Assembly: GCA_903842985.1 (NCBI GenBank)
Contig: CAIMOB010000014.1
Coordinates: 14,897 to 78,896, forward strand
Origin: an uncultured archaeon
GTDB taxonomy: Archaea; Nanobdellota; Nanobdellia; Woesearchaeales; CAIVOO01
Reading direction: 5' to 3'
DNA length: 64,000 nucleotides
Both the position numbers and the translations under genes were made by a program. Positions 8,526 to 58,447 of the stretch are shown piece after piece. The notes beneath the pieces are model-generated. The model worked only from the letters and a program-made list of their open reading frames with translations, did no database searches and had not been told where the DNA came from. Each line of letters begins with the position of its first letter. Positions within the stretch are counted from its first letter, which is position 1.

Positions 8526-9284
8526 CTATTTTCTCATCTGCACAATGCCATCATATCTTTTATAAAACACAATTACAAGAACAGCTGCAAGCGTTCTTAT
8601 AAAACTAAATTTAAACAGTCTCCTTATTAAAAAATTAAGCCTGGGGATTTTATTGGGTTTATCATACAATGCAAAATTTATGTATTCTGCGCGGGGGTAT
8701 ACTCTAAATTCCCTAAAACCTGCCTTCTTTGCAACTTTAACAATCTTTTTAGGAGGCATATCCTTCTCAGTAACACCAAACCTTTTAACAGCATTAACTG
8801 CGTTTATAGTCTTTGAATGGCCCGCGCCAGGTTCAGATACAATGCAAATCCCATTAGGTTTAAGCGAGTTATAAGCTGTTCTTAATGCCTTTTCTTCATT
8901 TACTGCATGATGCAAAGAATCTATAAACACAACACAGTCAAAGTTTGAATAAGAATTAATATTTTTTTCATAATCCCATTGAACAAATCTCAGATTTTTA
9001 AGTTTCTCCTGTGTTTTTTTTGCGGCAGCATGCTTAATTGATTCAGATGATATATCCACCCCAACAACATCATAGCCTCTCTTTGCAAAAAATATGCTTG
9101 TCCACCCTGTTCCGCAGCCCATATCTAATACTTTTGCAGGAGGATTCGGCAATAGAGACATAATTGCGCCCATCTCTGCCATTAATGCTCCGCATGCATC
9201 ATCGGAAAACGGCTTGTTTATTGAGTGCATGACTCCGCATTTTCCAATATTTTTCAGATAATCTATTTCTCCCTGCTTTGTCAT
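8526..9284 (-). CDS. class I SAM-dependent methyltransferase
   Basis: Motif I VLDMGCGTGWTSIFFAKRGYDVVGVDIS. I trimmed the start to Met55 (MTKQGEIDYL) because the longer ORF-track version would read through the tRNA gene. Confidence 0.7.
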   Translation of the reverse strand: MTKQGEIDYLKNIGKCGVMHSINKPFSDDACGALMAEMGAIMSLLPNPPAKVLDMGCGTGWTSIFFAKRGYDVVGVDISSESIKHAAAKKTQEKLKNLRFVQWDYEKNINSYSNFDCVVFIDSLHHAVNEEKALRTAYNSLKPNGICIVSEPGAGHSKTINAVNAVKRFGVTEKDMPPKKIVKVAKKAGFREFRVYPRAEYINFALYDKPNKIPRLNFLIRRLFKFSFIRTLAAVLVIVFYKRYDGIVQMRK

Positions 9285-9329
9285 TTTAAAATACTTCTGC
9301 CCCCAAAATGTTATATGATTTAAGTATGA

Positions 9330-9403
9330 TAGCCCCGGGCGGATTCGAACCGCCGTCCCGAGATCCAAAGTCTCGGATGATTGACCGGCTACACTACGGG
9401 GCT
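9330..9403 (-). tRNA. tRNA-Gln (anticodon UUG)
   Basis: I folded it by hand: AGCCCCG acceptor stem with an A1-U72 pair typical of archaeal tRNA-Gln, anticodon stem CGAGA/UCUCG with loop CUUUGGA (U33, anticodon UUG), T-arm GGCGG-TTCGAAT-CCGCC, discriminator A. CCA is not encoded. Confidence 0.8.
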
Positions 9404-9472
9404 GTATAAAAGACAGATATTGCCTTATTTTTATAAATTTTCGCAATATTTATATATTAATGCTATTTAAGC

Positions 9473-10758: not shown

Positions 10759-11718
10759 ATGTGGCATAAAATGTATGATATAATATCTGTGGGAAGCGCA
10801 ACAAGGGACATTTTTGTCTGGACAGCCACAGCAGCAAAGAAGAACATGTTCTGCTATCCTGTCGGCGAGAAGATTCTGGTGGACAGCATTGACTTTCATT
10901 CAGGGGGCGGCGGGACAAATACAGCTGTCTCATTTGCAAAGAAAGGCCTGAAAACAGCATATCTCGGGATGCTTGGCAGGGACAGCAATGGCATTTACAT
11001 CAGGACTTTGCTTGACGCCTTTGGCGTTGATTTCATAGGGAGCATCGGCAAAGAGATGACCGGCGTCTCGATAATCCTTGACAGCAGGGCAAAGAAGGAC
11101 AGGACAATTCTCGCTTATAAGGGAGTGAACAACCAGCTTAAGTTCTCCCAAATAAATCTTTCTAAGCTAAAGACAAAATGGTTTTATTTCTGCGCAATGG
11201 AGGGCGAGTCATTCAGGACACTGGAAAAGCTGGCTGATTACGCAAAAAGAAAAAAAATCAAGGTGATGTTCAATCCAAGCTCGTACCTCGCAAAGGAAGG
11301 GATGAGCCACCTGAAAAAAATAATCGCTGCAACAGACATCCTTGTGCTGAACAAGGAGGAAGCGGAATATTTGGCTGGCAGGGGCAGCATGAACGAGCTT
11401 CTCAAAAGGCTCCAGAGGCATGTGAAAATCGTGATTATCACGGACGGAAGCAACGGCGCATTCGCCTACAACGGGCTGCATAGATATTTTGTGAAAAGAA
11501 AAGTAAAAGTTGTGGAGGCAACAGGCGCAGGCGACGCATTCGGCTCCGGATTTTTGGCAGGCATTATTTTGAAGAAGGACATTGAGTTCGCGATGAAGCT
11601 TGCGCAGGCAAATGCCGAGTCTGTTCTGAAATACGTCGGTGCAAAGGACAATCTTCTGGCGACAAACGAGATAAAGAAAGCAATTAAGGAACTGAGAGTT
11701 AAGATTGAAAAACTGTAA
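10759..11718 (+). CDS. PfkB-family carbohydrate/nucleoside kinase (ribokinase-like)
   Basis: GGGGTNTAVSFAKKG (Gly-rich motif) and TGAGDAFGSGFLAGI (PfkB signature 2). Confidence 0.8.
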   Translation: MWHKMYDIISVGSATRDIFVWTATAAKKNMFCYPVGEKILVDSIDFHSGGGGTNTAVSFAKKGLKTAYLGMLGRDSNGIYIRTLLDAFGVDFIGSIGKEMTGVSIILDSRAKKDRTILAYKGVNNQLKFSQINLSKLKTKWFYFCAMEGESFRTLEKLADYAKRKKIKVMFNPSSYLAKEGMSHLKKIIAATDILVLNKEEAEYLAGRGSMNELLKRLQRHVKIVIITDGSNGAFAYNGLHRYFVKRKVKVVEATGAGDAFGSGFLAGIILKKDIEFAMKLAQANAESVLKYVGAKDNLLATNEIKKAIKELRVKIEKL

Positions 11719-11731
11719 GCTTCTAAAACCA
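11717..11731. repeat. 15-bp direct repeat AAGCTTCTAAAACCA (left copy; overlaps the PfkB stop codon)
   Basis: Identical to 12865-12879. I checked this by direct string comparison. Confidence 0.7.
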
Positions 11732-11858
11732 GGCTTATTAAGATGAAACTAAAAGAAGGAGTTAAATTAGGTGCACTTGTGCATGATCTTGAATTAGTTT
11801 ATCAGAGTATACAAAGACACAGATAATTTTATATAATACCTATACTTAATTCTCATTA

Positions 11859-12197
11859 ATGAACTGGATTGAATTATTTGATAAATTAGTTATAGGAATT
11901 GCAACAGAATTGAAATTAAAGTTTTTTAAAACTAGTAGTGGTTATTTGTTATCTCATGAAAATGTTTTTATTGGAGGGGTTTCTTATATTATCGGTAGAA
12001 ACGAAAAATTAAGGATATTGGTTAATCCTGCTCCTGCCAGATTTAAAGGAATGCCTATAGAAAGTATTCCTAAAGTTTCTATATTCTTAGGAAGACCAAT
12101 TGATTTAGGTGATTATACAATGGAAGAGTTACAAGGAAAAAATTCAAAGGCAAAAATAGCCATAATTTCAGCCATAATAAAGCAAATAGGAAAATGA
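11859..12197 (+). CDS. hypothetical protein (AT-rich island)
   Basis: A 112-aa ORF inside the low-GC segment. Confidence 0.35.
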   Translation: MNWIELFDKLVIGIATELKLKFFKTSSGYLLSHENVFIGGVSYIIGRNEKLRILVNPAPARFKGMPIESIPKVSIFLGRPIDLGDYTMEELQGKNSKAKIAIISAIIKQIGK

Positions 12198-12236
12198 TTG
12201 TCTTTCTATCCTCAGCAGATTCGCTAACTTATAGAA

Positions 12237-12818
12237 ATGTTTATAAATTTCATTATACTATTAAATTTAATGAAACGTGAATTAGTATTAGAAAAAGAGG
12301 ATTATGAAGTTTTAAATCCCATTTTAGATATTCAGGAAAAATTCAAAACAGATGGCTGGAAGCCCGAATATGCCCAAGTAATTAAACAATGTGTTTCTAA
12401 TCTTAATAAGATACTTGAAGAAGTAAATAAAGAAGTAAAATACAGAAATGAAAATAAAATGATGATAGGCAGTTCTTTTATAGAATTTTATACTTCGGTA
12501 TATCAAGTATTCAATCTTTGGGAAGATATTCAAACTAGGGATGAAAGTTTTTTAGAATTATTAATTAAGGAAGCACCCGAACTTGTAGAAGTTATCATTC
12601 CTAAAGCAAACAATCTTTGGGATGAAATAAAATTAAACTGTAAGACTATAACTAGTGATCCCATATGGCCAAAGGGTCCAAACTTTATAAGATCACCAAA
12701 AGAACTTGCTAATGGAACTTATGAAGGGATTCCAATTGATGAAATAATAAAGGATGCAGTAGATATTGGTGAATACTTAGATGGATTTGCAAAAGAACAT
12801 TCTGATGTATTGAAATAA
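12237..12818 (+). CDS. hypothetical protein (AT-rich island)
   Basis: A 193-aa acidic ORF inside the low-GC segment. Confidence 0.4.
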   Translation: MFINFIILLNLMKRELVLEKEDYEVLNPILDIQEKFKTDGWKPEYAQVIKQCVSNLNKILEEVNKEVKYRNENKMMIGSSFIEFYTSVYQVFNLWEDIQTRDESFLELLIKEAPELVEVIIPKANNLWDEIKLNCKTITSDPIWPKGPNFIRSPKELANGTYEGIPIDEIIKDAVDIGEYLDGFAKEHSDVLK

Positions 12819-12864
12819 TTACTTTTCGTTCTTTCTCGACTTTGTCAAGAAGAATTTTTGTGCA

Positions 12865-12879
12865 AAGCTTCTAAAACCA
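12865..12879. repeat. 15-bp direct repeat AAGCTTCTAAAACCA (right copy)
   Basis: Identical to 11717-11731. The two copies bracket a low-GC 1.13-kb segment. Confidence 0.7.
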
Positions 12880-13063
12880 AAATGCTTATAAACAGAGGGT
12901 TTCATAATCCAGTACTTCGAGGGTTGATAAGTATTGATTAACTACGACAGAAGACTCGTACACAGAGAAAAAGAGAAAGAAACTGATCCAATTTTGAAAA
13001 ATCTAATCTGGATCATGGCAATCCTTGTGCTGATTTTAATAGTCCTGTAAAAAAGGAGGCGAA

Positions 13064-53451: not shown

Positions 53452-55011
53452 TCAAGCCAGCCCAGCTAACTCAATGTCTGTCTTTAATCCAATGACGTCG
53501 TAATAAATCTTCTTCTTCTGCTCCGCATCAATTCCTCTAAGAAGGGAATATGCGCTCTTTATCTGGTCGTAAATCTGCTTAGCTTCCTTCACATTCCTGA
53601 CTTTCATAGCCTCCCTTGCCCTGTCCATTAATTCATAAATCTCAACGCCTTCAGGCGACTCCTCTTCGACAAGCCTTTCTGCAAAGCTGATGTCCCCGTC
53701 AATTCCCTTCTCCTCTGTAAGATCTGTCTCATATCTCTTTAACTCATTTTTCAAGTATGACCTAAAGCTCAGTTCGTCAACCTTTTCCTTTTCCTTCTCA
53801 ACGCCCTGCATTATGCCTTCAATCTTTCCTTCCTTTTCCTTTATCACGCGTTCCCTCTGCATAATGTCGCCTGCCCTATTGACTATTTTCTGCTTCTTCT
53901 GCACTTCACTCATCAGTTGCCTGTATTTCTTCTCAAGCAGCGGAAGGTTTGCCTTCAATTCCTTGGCTTTCTTCACCTTTTCCTCTCTTTTGCTGACTTC
54001 TTTTTCCCTATTGTTAAGCATCTTCTGCGCTGTTTCAAACTTTGTGAACATTCCTGTTATCTCATCCTCTTTTTCATCAAGCTCTTTCTTGTCTTTTTCA
54101 ATCCTTGAAATGTCAGCAACAAGCTTTTTTTCAGTGGAGTCAATCCTTTTCCTGTCGCTTTCTATTTCATTGAACTTCTTTACAATCTCATCCTCTTTTT
54201 CATCAAGAATCTGCTGGTTTGTTTTGAGAACATTAAGCTTTGTTTCATACTCTATCTTGAGCTTTTCAAGCTCGTTGCTGGTGACAAACACATTGTGCTC
54301 AACATTTCTTTTGTCTGCGCTGAGCTTTATGACATCATTCATCAAATCCTTCTGCTTCTGCTCGAGAAGCCTGACGTTGTCAGTTGCTTCCTTCCTTGTT
54401 CTTTCAAACTCTTTTTCAGCGAGCTGGACAGCATTTTCCCTTGCCTTGAAGCCCATTTCAATTTCTTTATCCTTTAAGTCAGTCCTTGTTATCTTTACTT
54501 CCTTATTGGCAATCTCCTCTGCCTTTTTTCCAATCTGCCTTTCCTTTTCCCTGAAAAGCGTCTCCTTGTCTTCAAGCTCGCGCTTCAGTTTCTTCGCCCA
54601 CTGCTCTGTTTCATAGACAGTTGCCCTCAGGGCATCTCTTTTCTTTTCAAGAGTTTCTATTTCCCTTACAAGCCCCGCCTTATCCTTGTCCAGGTCTTTC
54701 ACCTGTCTTGAAAGCTCTTTGTTAAGGTCGGCAAGCTCGTTTTCCTTTTCATTCAGCGCCTTTTCCTTGTTGTCAGTCGCCTCTTTTTTTGTAAGAATGT
54801 AATCTTCCTGCTCATTCAGCTTTATTTTTTTTGAAGCTATCTCTTTCTCGATTTTTGCAAGAATCTTTTCCTTTTCAGCCAAAGCCTTTTCTTTTTCCTT
54901 CAGCTGGATTTCATTTGAATCTTTCTTTGAGAAGAATCCTTTTTTCTCTGGTTTTTCTGCAATCAATGGAGGTGCCGGTATCTCTGCCTCTTTTTGAGAA
55001 ACTTCTGTCAT
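53452..55011 (-). CDS. long K/E-rich coiled-coil protein
   Basis: 519 aa of heptad-like K/E/L repeats. The 308-aa S/F/L-rich ORF on the opposite strand (53690-54616) is the antisense artefact of this gene. Confidence 0.5.
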   Translation of the reverse strand: MTEVSQKEAEIPAPPLIAEKPEKKGFFSKKDSNEIQLKEKEKALAEKEKILAKIEKEIASKKIKLNEQEDYILTKKEATDNKEKALNEKENELADLNKELSRQVKDLDKDKAGLVREIETLEKKRDALRATVYETEQWAKKLKRELEDKETLFREKERQIGKKAEEIANKEVKITRTDLKDKEIEMGFKARENAVQLAEKEFERTRKEATDNVRLLEQKQKDLMNDVIKLSADKRNVEHNVFVTSNELEKLKIEYETKLNVLKTNQQILDEKEDEIVKKFNEIESDRKRIDSTEKKLVADISRIEKDKKELDEKEDEITGMFTKFETAQKMLNNREKEVSKREEKVKKAKELKANLPLLEKKYRQLMSEVQKKQKIVNRAGDIMQRERVIKEKEGKIEGIMQGVEKEKEKVDELSFRSYLKNELKRYETDLTEEKGIDGDISFAERLVEEESPEGVEIYELMDRAREAMKVRNVKEAKQIYDQIKSAYSLLRGIDAEQKKKIYYDVIGLKTDIELAGLA

Positions 55012-57175: not shown

Positions 57176-57189
57176 CTCTTTTTTAACAG

Positions 57190-57249
57190 AGCTATCGCTA
57201 GTTCTGTATCATCATTTTGACAAAGCTATCGCTAGTTCTGTATGATCAT
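57190..57249. repeat. two copies of a 26-bp direct repeat AGCTATCGCTAGTTCTGTAT(C/G)ATCAT, spaced 34 bp
   Basis: Copy 1 is 57190-57215 and copy 2 is 57224-57249, with one mismatch. They lie between the orc1 stop and the HD-GYP start. Confidence 0.65.
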
Positions 57250-57259
57250 GACTTCCCGA

Positions 57260-58447
57260 TTAAATGCTGTCTCTCAACAGCTTCACTGCCTTTGTCTTCA
57301 ATGCCTTGTCAAGCGGAACAGATACTTTCCTGCTCTTCTTTTCCAGGCTTTTCAGCCAGCCAACTTCTGCGCTTATCAATGATGATTCACTTAGGTTCAC
57401 CAAAAATGACCTTATCCTTCTCTCTGTCAGCGGCTCGACATTGTACGACGGGCAGAGCTCCAGGTATTTCCTGTAAATCTCCACGCCGTCCATCTCAAGC
57501 CCTTCTTTTTCGTTCTTCAATATTGCATAATACAATATTTTCTGGTGCTTTGGAAGGCTTGCAATCACATTCAAGACAGAGTTCTCCTCTAGGCTCTTGT
57601 CTGCAGAGTCCACAAGATCAATTGTTATCTTGGTTCTCTTCCTTGCGATTGCCGCCTTTGCGCAGGCATCAACAAGCTCCAGGGCTCTTCGAGCGTCACC
57701 GCCCCGTTGAGCTTCGATTTCCGCTATTTTCCTGATAACTGAATCTGAAACTGTATCTTTCTTCAAAGCCAGCTTGACTCTTTCGTTTATTATGTCGAAA
57801 AGCTCGTCAGCATTGTACGGCGAGAATATTACCTTGACCCTGCCGAACGCTGACTGCGTCTTTGGCTTTATGTAATCTGAAACCCTTACATCATTTGAGA
57901 TTATGATTGTTGATGTATTTGCGCTCACCTGGTTGTTTATCCTGCTCAGCCTGTAAAGTATGTCATCGCCTGATTCTCTCAAGGCGTAATCAACTTCATC
58001 CAGGATAACAAGTACGTTCTTGTTCTCCTTCTTGTTCAGCACCTTGCTGAACTCGTCAACTGTCTTAGCCCTGTTCCACCCCATCTTTGGATATTTTCCT
58101 TCAGGGTCAACTTGACTTAATGTGCTCAGCAGAATAGATGTTTCTGTCCTGTTCTCTGAGCAATTCACGTAAGCCTTTTTCAGTTCAATGTTGCGTTTCC
58201 TTGCCTCCCCCTCTAGCTCATCCAGCAAATCCAGCAAAAGCGCTGTCTTTCCTGTTCCAGGCGGTCCGTAAACGAACACGCACGAAACAGCGGATTTCAT
58301 CAGTATAGGCGCAAGCTCCATAACCAGCTCGTTTTTCTGCTTTGTTCTGTGCAGGAAGCCTGTTGGAGGCCTCAGCGAGAACAAAACATCCCTGTCCTTG
58401 TAGATGGGATTTTCGAGCACGCTTGCGAATGTTATCTCTTTTTCCAT
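57260..58447 (-). CDS. orc1: Orc1/Cdc6 replication initiator
   Basis: Walker A VFVYGPPGTGKTAL and Walker B VLVILDEVDYAL, with a C-terminal winged-helix region. Confidence 0.85.
   Translation of the reverse strand: MEKEITFASVLENPIYKDRDVLFSLRPPTGFLHRTKQKNELVMELAPILMKSAVSCVFVYGPPGTGKTALLLDLLDELEGEARKRNIELKKAYVNCSENRTETSILLSTLSQVDPEGKYPKMGWNRAKTVDEFSKVLNKKENKNVLVILDEVDYALRESGDDILYRLSRINNQVSANTSTIIISNDVRVSDYIKPKTQSAFGRVKVIFSPYNADELFDIINERVKLALKKDTVSDSVIRKIAEIEAQRGGDARRALELVDACAKAAIARKRTKITIDLVDSADKSLEENSVLNVIASLPKHQKILYYAILKNEKEGLEMDGVEIYRKYLELCPSYNVEPLTERRIRSFLVNLSESSLISAEVGWLKSLEKKSRKVSVPLDKALKTKAVKLLRDSI

Follow-up and report, generated by a model that had tools for sequence, protein, structure and literature searches.

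How did a 1.1-kb AT-rich segment carrying two small genes come to lie between a PfkB-family kinase gene and an aldolase gene in an archaeal chromosome, bracketed by two perfect copies of a 15-bp sequence? We addressed this question in a 64,000-nucleotide stretch of DNA from an uncultured archaeon (Woesearchaeales; GenBank assembly GCA_903842985.1, contig CAIMOB010000014.1, positions 14,897 to 78,896 of the forward strand), here called the window, with positions counted from its first letter. A preliminary description made from the letters alone had proposed that the repeats are a target-site duplication (TSD) or att-site pair around a small mobile element lacking its own recombinase. We conclude that the segment, hereafter the cassette, is a small islet gained by horizontal transfer, with its insertion site duplicated and without its own recombinase, and that it represents a real but fairly ordinary gene-transfer scar.

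Direct repeats coincide with the boundaries of an AT-rich segment

The 15-mer AAGCTTCTAAAACCA occurs twice in the window, and we found no further copy in the 64 kb even when allowing two mismatches. Its positions are those originally given, as is its overlap with the kinase gene: the first two bases of the left copy are the last two of the kinase TAA stop codon (11716–11718). The right copy ends 5 nt before a native TATA box (12885). Together with the comparison to two related genomes introduced below (L003 and L011), these data define the following features:

11717–11731, no strand: left repeat copy AAGCTTCTAAAACCA; attL or left target duplication; homology to L003 breaks exactly here
11732–12864, + strand: foreign insert of 1133 bp at 28.8% GC; missing from L011, present in L003
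12865–12879, no strand: right repeat copy; attR or right target duplication; directly precedes the native promoter

The DNA between the two copies is as AT-rich relative to both flanks as had been described. Its GC content compares with a window mean of 41.5% (SD 3.2% in 1133-bp windows), and a GC scan identified 11732–12864 as the lowest-GC stretch of its length in the entire 64 kb. The repeat taken alone is weak evidence: first-order Markov simulations of the window give an expectation of 0.46 local (≤3 kb) exact 15-mer repeats in 64 kb, compared with three loci of this kind actually present. We judge this pair to be non-random because its copies coincide with compositional boundaries and with the breakpoints of an insertion polymorphism in relatives. 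The preliminary description had considered that chance 15-mers might be common and unaccompanied by any compositional shift; instead, these repeats sit on GC boundaries.

A related genome carries the empty site

To interpret the junctions, we compared the gene order at this locus in the window with that in three relatives, listed with the amino acid identity of their kinase to that of the window:

Window: kinase, site, cassette, site, small ORF, aldolase
L011 (GCA_964489005.1), 91%: kinase, single site, small ORF, aldolase
L003 (metagenome-assembled genome (MAG) MFD03726.bin.2.37), 88%: kinase, T2SSF-like gene pair (176 + 221 aa), site, then cassette (ORF112 + 185-aa ORF182 homologue), AAGCCCCTAAAACCA, small ORF, aldolase
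L013, 70%: kinase, T2SSF-like gene pair, aldolase; cassette absent

L011 contains the empty site that the preliminary description had suggested looking for in relatives. Its junction holds one 15-mer (...GAAAAACTGTAAGCTTCTAAAACCAAAATGCTTATAAAT...; in a longer reading, ...ATTGAAAAACTGTAAGCTTCTAAAACCAAAATGCTTATAAAT...), and the window becomes co-linear with L011 once 11732–12879 is removed, aligning without gaps and perfectly for ~35 nt on each side of the junction. Over a longer span, the identity of the de-cassetted window to L011 is 94.5% for the final 181 nt of the kinase and 92.9% for the adjoining 85 nt. The cassette is also missing from the more distant L013 and from L005, whose kinase is 48% identical.

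L003 carries a second occupied site. Homology between the window and L003 starts exactly at 11717, and left of the left repeat there is none, the kinase end in the window facing the end of a T2SSF-like gene in L003. Relatives holding the same two ORFs without any repeat would have counted against an insertion; the carrier L003 keeps the repeat pair, with a left copy matching the 15-mer at 15/15 positions and a right copy at 13/15 (AAGCCCCTAAAACCA). The two L003 copies differ from each other at positions 5–6, which read TT in the left copy and CC in the right. From the empty and occupied alleles, we consider it very likely that the cassette arose by an insertion with both junctions in a duplicated 15-bp host sequence.

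The T2SSF-like (FlaJ/TadC-type) genes encode a pair of membrane proteins of 176 and 221–222 aa (L003 6945–8133; L013 8936–10127). This pair is precisely absent from the window and L011, where the kinase stop directly meets the final codons of the lost gene, and it has no homologue elsewhere in the 64-kb window. In L013, the pair ends in ...GAAGCGTTTTGAAAACCAAAATGCTTATAAAT, a diverged form of the site. These alignments indicate that the site originally comprised the 3' end of the T2SSF-like gene (..S F stop) and the region just upstream of the aldolase-unit promoter, and that the pair was deleted in the window/L011 allele. With a T2SSF-like gene as the original left neighbor of the site, its overlap with the kinase stop codon is secondary. 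Microhomology behind the deletion was sought by eye and could not be resolved.

The cassette is younger than the flanking DNA

Divergence between the window and L003 changes at the cassette boundaries. Synonymous divergence (dS) is 0.54 for the kinase, 0.52 for the aldolase, 0.75 for MT369 and 0.55 for PIMT; for the two cassette genes, ORF112 and ORF182, it is 0.125 and 0.30. DNA identity is 98.4% in the non-coding left end (11732–11858) and 97.8% in the last 46 nt of the cassette, and 89% in the 85 nt just outside the right repeat. The center of ORF182 (12417–12716) is the most divergent part, at 73–82% identity with several indels and a dN/dS of about 0.4, and could reflect local diversifying selection or a recombined allele. 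Overall, these values show that the cassette is younger than the DNA around it. Because the step in divergence meets the repeats on both sides, it is hard to fit to simple vertical inheritance or to transfer by long flanking homology, and the pattern fits a cassette that arrived, in one lineage at least, directly at the 15-bp site.

The locus as a whole is a mosaic. Across the aldolase and the CARDB/membrane-protein region, L003 and L011 group together (93.4% and 80% DNA identity, versus 89% and 71% to the window), while the terminal ~200 nt of the kinase and the ~100 nt adjoining the site on its right place L011 with the window. Informative sites in this junction tract number 35 for L011–window, 6 for L003–L011 and 7 for window–L003. 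L011 is thus a recombinant with a window-like, cassette-free junction tract within an L003-like background. Such a mosaic shows that a cassette-free allele of the window type existed, and that alleles at this locus undergo homologous exchange. The right flank is ~88–90% identical among the lineages, and the tracts indicate homologous exchange between lineages ~12% diverged.

ORF112 has close relatives in low-GC archaeal genomes

The cassette encodes two small proteins, each behind its own promoter-like element:

11732–11820, + strand: cassette left end, source not traced; doubtful 27-codon ORF at 11743–11826
11828–11835, + strand: TATA-like octamer TTTATATA, at −31 from the ORF112 ATG
11859–12197, + strand: ORF112, small alpha/beta protein, basic (isoelectric point (pI) 9.7); family from ~29%-GC archaeal contigs
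12240–12247, + strand: TATA-like octamer TTTATAAA, at −30 from the ATG at 12270
12270–12818, + strand: ORF182, acidic (pI 4.7), predicted helical, fast-evolving; sole known homologue in L003

The second ORF most likely starts at 12270 (182 aa) and not at 12237 (193 aa), because public assemblies call this start and a TATA octamer sits at −30 from it. In archaeal promoters, the distance between the TATA element and the start codon is informative about leader length. At least eight native genes of the window have a TATA-like octamer 30–31 nt upstream of their ATG (e.g. 1581, 6439, 9479, 16971, 21318, 38271, 58620 and 61174), a spacing that implies mostly leaderless transcripts in this organism. 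Both cargo genes show the same −30/−31 spacing to octamers of their own, and are thus independently promoted in a native-like manner.

Both ORFs had been described as orphans, with 112 and 193 codons. ORF182, besides being shorter than this, is a near-orphan: its one homologue among 5.8 billion proteins is the L003 copy. Its acidity and possible alpha-helical fold, also part of that description, agree with its pI and with a structure prediction of low confidence. ORF112 is no orphan, belonging to a small family of ~95-aa proteins that form 11 clusters among 1.84 billion representative proteins, and its AlphaFold2 model has a predicted local distance difference test (pLDDT) score of 89. Pfam, PHROGs and PADLOC searches returned no significant family match for either protein, and no known toxin, antitoxin or defense family was among their results; fold matches are generic. 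By analogy, a basic/acidic protein pair on a laterally moving islet may suggest an accessory, conflict-type or addiction-type function, a suggestion to which the PADLOC result gives no backing.

The closest relatives of ORF112 lie on ~29%-GC contigs (L014–L017, L019 and L020) that are mutually 99.7–99.9% identical. There, the homologue adjoins rps9-rpl13-rpl18e-rpoD genes and two GTPase genes, and we conclude that this locus is native chromosome of another archaeon. Identity to the L014/L019 locus is 92.5–93% at the DNA level and covers 11821–12167 only, that is, the promoter and ORF112; left of 11821 we detected no homology between the cassette and the ~29%-GC loci. The dS of ORF112 between the window and L014 is 0.20, below that of core genes between the window and L003. 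For at least this portion of the cassette, we therefore conclude that a recent exchange took place between lineages that differ greatly in composition, and composition suggests that the transfer was into the 42%-GC lineage. Sources are traced for 11821–12167 only, with 11732–11820 and 12198–12864 having no known source.

Within the ~29%-GC lineage, the ORF112 homologue is split in L015 and L020 by an IS200-type insertion and carries a TAG nonsense codon in L019. The insertion (L015 1954–2565, likewise in L020) spans 612 bp, encodes a 160-aa IS200-type Y1 transposase (PF01797) and is absent from L014 and L019, whose contigs are 99.9% identical apart from it. These disrupted copies indicate that the gene is dispensable there. 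ORF112 homologues have no shared partner: their neighbors differ from one context to the next, and two of these, ORF126 and ORF71, are unrelated to ORF182.

The cassette lacks recognizable mobility functions

We searched the cassette for features of known mobile elements. As had been proposed, it encodes no recombinase domain, and none was found by Pfam in the ~56 window ORFs (≥110 aa) scanned alongside; Cas1 and PolB domains are absent from the same set, as are tyrosine recombinases and Y1_Tnp from the window ORFs. There are no terminal inverted repeats (TIRs), the first 60 nt scoring 13 against the reverse complement of the last 60, compared to a shuffle mean of 13.1. Folding of both ends and both strands as single-stranded DNA revealed no significant attC-like hairpin (z −0.7, −1.45, +0.6 and +0.3), and an RNA fold at the cassette end, which might have been an attC-like or terminator hairpin, was likewise not significant (z 0.09).

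The cassette is present once in the window, and its known carriers are two genomes, always at the same site. It has no match in viral contigs (searched with its proteins and both DNA ends) or in phage or plasmid records, and a search of Joint Genome Institute (JGI) metagenome contigs using only an exact 30-mer from the left end was also negative. A search for further copies, which the preliminary description had recommended, thus yielded both ORFs between repeats in L003 and no other site. We saw no sign of multiple copies or present-day mobility within the window and the databases searched.

Crossover of a small circle at the 15-bp site is the favored mechanism

The earlier alternative of a TSD or an att pair around a small mobile element holds as regards insertion at a duplicated site; between the two, the data lean only weakly to an att-type crossover over a transposition-type duplication. 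We assign a probability of about 0.5 to a reciprocal crossover of circular DNA at the 15-bp site, with its sub-variants included. In this mechanism, we infer a circular intermediate, a reciprocal crossover and a trans-acting enzyme. The inserted unit is 1148 bp, made up of the 1133 bp of AT-rich foreign DNA and the second copy of the 15-bp site. Its target is one specific site, with the upstream gene's stop codon on one side and the B-recognition element (BRE)/TATA region of the promoter for the small-ORF/aldolase unit on the other. In a Campbell-type integration, a small circle with the junction ...TTTTTGTGCA-AAGCTTCTAAAACCA-GGCTTATTAAG... would cross once, reciprocally, with the chromosomal copy, catalyzed in trans by a site-specific recombinase encoded elsewhere or by host short-homology recombination. 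The product would be a cassette bracketed by two site copies, and the same cassette would later have come to occupy the same site in a second lineage, that of L003. Because the site is duplicated, neither the upstream stop nor the downstream promoter is lost, making the insertion neutral to its neighbors.

Three observations lead us to favor a crossover. First, the TT/CC difference in L003 makes the right copy resemble the flank and the left copy match the cassette lineage, as expected from a crossover of two non-identical sites but not from a fresh duplication. Second, imperfect similarity runs past the 15-mer, as expected if the incoming DNA bore a related site: CCA-GG-CTTATTAAG compares with CCA-AAATG-CTTATAAAC, and the cassette left end GGCTTATTAAG with the target right flank AAATGCTTATAAAC. 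Third, the TIRs needed by known enzymes that duplicate 15 bp, the casposases, are absent (PMC5137440). Chance identity is available, since by our own arithmetic a random 1.1-kb circle and a 1-Mb genome are expected to share about two exact 15-mers.

Other observations weigh against a crossover. Neither a circular form nor an attP junction was found in viral contigs (both ends), JGI contigs (left end only) or phage and plasmid records, and the 64 kb of genome covered contain no candidate recombinase. There are only two carrier genomes and one site, and repeated independent integration would be read from patterns of divergence. Gene conversion between pre-existing cassette copies, which share 51 bp of identity at the left end, could have lowered that divergence, and a double substitution at a later time could explain the TT/CC difference in L003. 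Finally, a 15-bp duplication is also a signature of casposase-type integration (PMC5137440).

We weighed this last possibility as a transposition-type event, in which linear DNA is joined at a 15-bp staggered cut and gap fill-in creates a true TSD, with the enzyme, e.g. a casposase (Cas1-solo), acting in trans. The cassette shares with casposons an archaeal host, a target duplication of exactly 15 bp and a site that abuts a gene 3' end: casposons generate 14–15-bp TSDs and target 3'-distal regions of tRNA genes or aEF-2, and in vitro, a 1-kb mini-casposon with TIRs alone is able to integrate (PMC5137440, PMC4779613). Casposase integration nonetheless depends on TIR ends (PMC5137440), which the cassette lacks along with a casposase or PolB, and neither Cas1 nor PolB is encoded in the scanned window ORFs. 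At 1.1 kb, the cassette also differs from casposons of 8–20 kb, it exists in a single copy only, and TSD copies begin identical whereas those in L003 are unequal. We regard this origin as unlikely.

Equally doubtful is an old cassette inherited vertically in the window/L003 clade, with the repeat a relic or a chance occurrence and the "empty" allele a secondary state that arose from a deletion between the repeats (by slippage or by recombination) and was propagated by homologous recombination. Parsimony does not separate one gain and one loss from two gains, the L011 mosaic shows that alleles here move by homologous recombination, and chance local 15-mer repeats are not rare at the simulated rate. 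Against such inheritance, synonymous and non-coding divergence of the cassette between the window and L003 is 2–10 times lower than in the flanks, changing abruptly at the right repeat; L013 and L005 are without the cassette; and ORF112 is nearer to the ~29%-GC lineage than window core genes are to their L003 counterparts. Even under vertical descent, the repeats would remain recombination points.

A double homologous recombination from a close relative already possessing the cassette, with the 15-mer as the only homology on the left side, is quite unlikely. Inter-lineage recombination tracts at this locus speak for it, as does the ~88–90% identity of the right flank among lineages. Such a transfer would account for spread and not for the original duplication. 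Donor flank should also have come along, yet divergence climbs immediately outside the right repeat, and the left crossover would be confined to ≤15 bp, as the kinase end and the T2SSF end are non-homologous.

More speculatively, and with quite low probability, the cassette might be an undescribed minimal archaeal mobile unit without recombinase, inverted repeats or attC that relies in trans on an unknown integrase, or on a Cas1-like enzyme independent of TIRs, for its movement. As a further part of this improbable scheme, the enzyme would recognize the 15-bp site between stop codon and BRE/TATA promoter; on the same slim footing, such units would shuttle self-promoted leaderless genes among DPANN archaea of very different composition.

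We rejected an assembly chimera, in which DNA of a low-GC organism was joined into the contig at a shared short word, as highly improbable: another organism from similar environments has a genome matching part of the cassette at 93% identity, and short public contigs tend to break near the region, but independent assemblies share the joins, with an ENA contig having the kinase, ORF112 and the next ORF in order, and L003, from a different project, holds a diverged whole cassette at the same site. A 15-bp overlap is shorter than usual assembly k-mer sizes.

The cassette resembles several known systems in part

By analogy with bacterial integrative and conjugative or mobilizable elements (ICEs/IMEs), the behavior of the cassette is closest to that of a cis-mobilizable element (CIME), an integrase-less, att-flanked remnant of an integrative element (PMC5704250). 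Like a CIME, the cassette is flanked at a gene 3' end by direct repeats that correspond to attL and attR, of which the empty site has one copy, and it has no integration or transfer genes inside, such that movement would occur only by an enzyme in trans. The cassette differs in being archaeal (DPANN) and 1.1 kb long, with no recognizable remnant of an integrase, a relaxase or an ICE/IME module. No cognate larger element was found in viral, phage or plasmid collections, and decay from one would be hypothetical.

The att sites of phage lambda have a 15-bp common core. Lambda-like temperate integration would likewise leave an identical 15 bp at both junctions and one copy in the empty site; the cassette differs in having no integrase, arm-type sites or phage or plasmid genes, and its putative circle would measure just 1148 bp. 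IS200/IS605 elements insert without duplicating their target and require subterminal hairpins. They and their non-autonomous derivatives, palindrome-associated transposable elements (PATEs), share with the cassette a small size and the lack of TIRs, and an IS200-type element is active in the lineage carrying the ORF112 homologue, where it splits the gene in L015 and L020. We rejected this assignment given the 15-bp duplication, the lack of significant hairpins, and the lack of a Y1 transposase in the cassette and the scanned window ORFs. A miniature inverted-repeat transposable element (MITE) or other non-autonomous DNA transposon was also rejected, there being one copy in the window, one other genome with ORF182, and no TIRs.

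Integrons do occur in Nanoarchaeota (PMC9668308). The cassette resembles an integron cassette, or an archaeal cluster of attC sites lacking integron-integrases (CALIN), in being a unit of ~1 kb with one or two functionally uncharacterized genes, variable presence, a fixed site and no internal recombinase (PMC9668308). It differs in that it has no attC-like end, intI, attI or array, standing as a single cassette between two housekeeping genes, and in that its cargo genes are self-promoted and its 15-bp direct duplication is not an integron junction. For want of attC, intI and an array, and because its genes have their own promoters, we rejected this assignment as well.

The cassette lies in an ordinary DPANN chromosome

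The window represents ordinary chromosomal DNA of a DPANN archaeon. The nearest named homologues of the kinase come from Woesearchaeota/Nanoarchaeia MAGs, and housekeeping genes in the window include those for Orc1/Cdc6, DnaG primase, ribosomal protein S15, an aIF5B-like GTPase, tRNA methyltransferases and similar proteins. The native features flanking the cassette are:

10771–11718, + strand: PfkB-family sugar/nucleoside kinase, 315 aa in the public assembly call (Pfam PF00294, E 8e-43)
12885–12892, + strand: native TATA-like box CTTATAAA of the small-ORF/aldolase unit, kept in L003, L011 and L013
12934–13050, + strand: 38-codon ORF starting with TTG (LINYDRRLVHREKEKETDPILKNLIWIMAILVLILIVL), hydrophobic at its tail, upstream of the aldolase, kept in L003, L011, L012 and L013
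13064–13831, + strand: DeoC/LacD-family (class I) aldolase, native right flank (Pfam PF01791, E 4e-44)

In the distant relative L005, a DeoC-family aldolase directly follows the kinase, and we take the kinase–aldolase adjacency to be the old state. The 38-codon ORF is probably a real, unannotated gene for a small membrane protein; in L012, the gene after it encodes a bPH_2 protein and not an aldolase.

The insertion site itself contains no tRNA or known RNA, the sole RNA match in the window being a tRNA-Gln(TTG) gene on the minus strand at 9330–9403, 2.3 kb away. This tRNA gene is overlapped by a mechanically called 306-aa ORF (8526–9446), and the methyltransferase gene there must therefore start further downstream. 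Two other direct repeats lie far from the cassette. One, of ~26 bp (ACAGAGCTATCGCTAGTTCTGTATCATCAT and ACAAAGCTATCGCTAGTTCTGTATGATCAT) with 34-bp spacing, is intergenic at 57187–57246, adjoins the 3' end of orc1/cdc6 (57260–58447, minus strand) and could be a regulatory or origin-associated element. The other is an exact 24-bp repeat (54059–54082 and 54185–54208, 126 bp apart) within a 519-aa ORF (53452–55011, minus strand) with no Pfam match, and is presumably an internal protein repeat.

Implications for gene gain in DPANN archaea

DPANN archaea have small genomes, and gene gain in them is little documented. The locus described here offers a clean case, combining an empty site, two occupied sites in lineages ~12% diverged, and a donor-like state of ORF112 at ~93% DNA identity. 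It shows recent gene flow between distinct archaeal lineages, at an insertion point that spares both neighbors. If a trans-acting enzyme were tied to the 15-bp site, this would define an integration system for a group without genetic tools. Overall, the cassette is a well-supported, small and functionally anonymous genomic islet.

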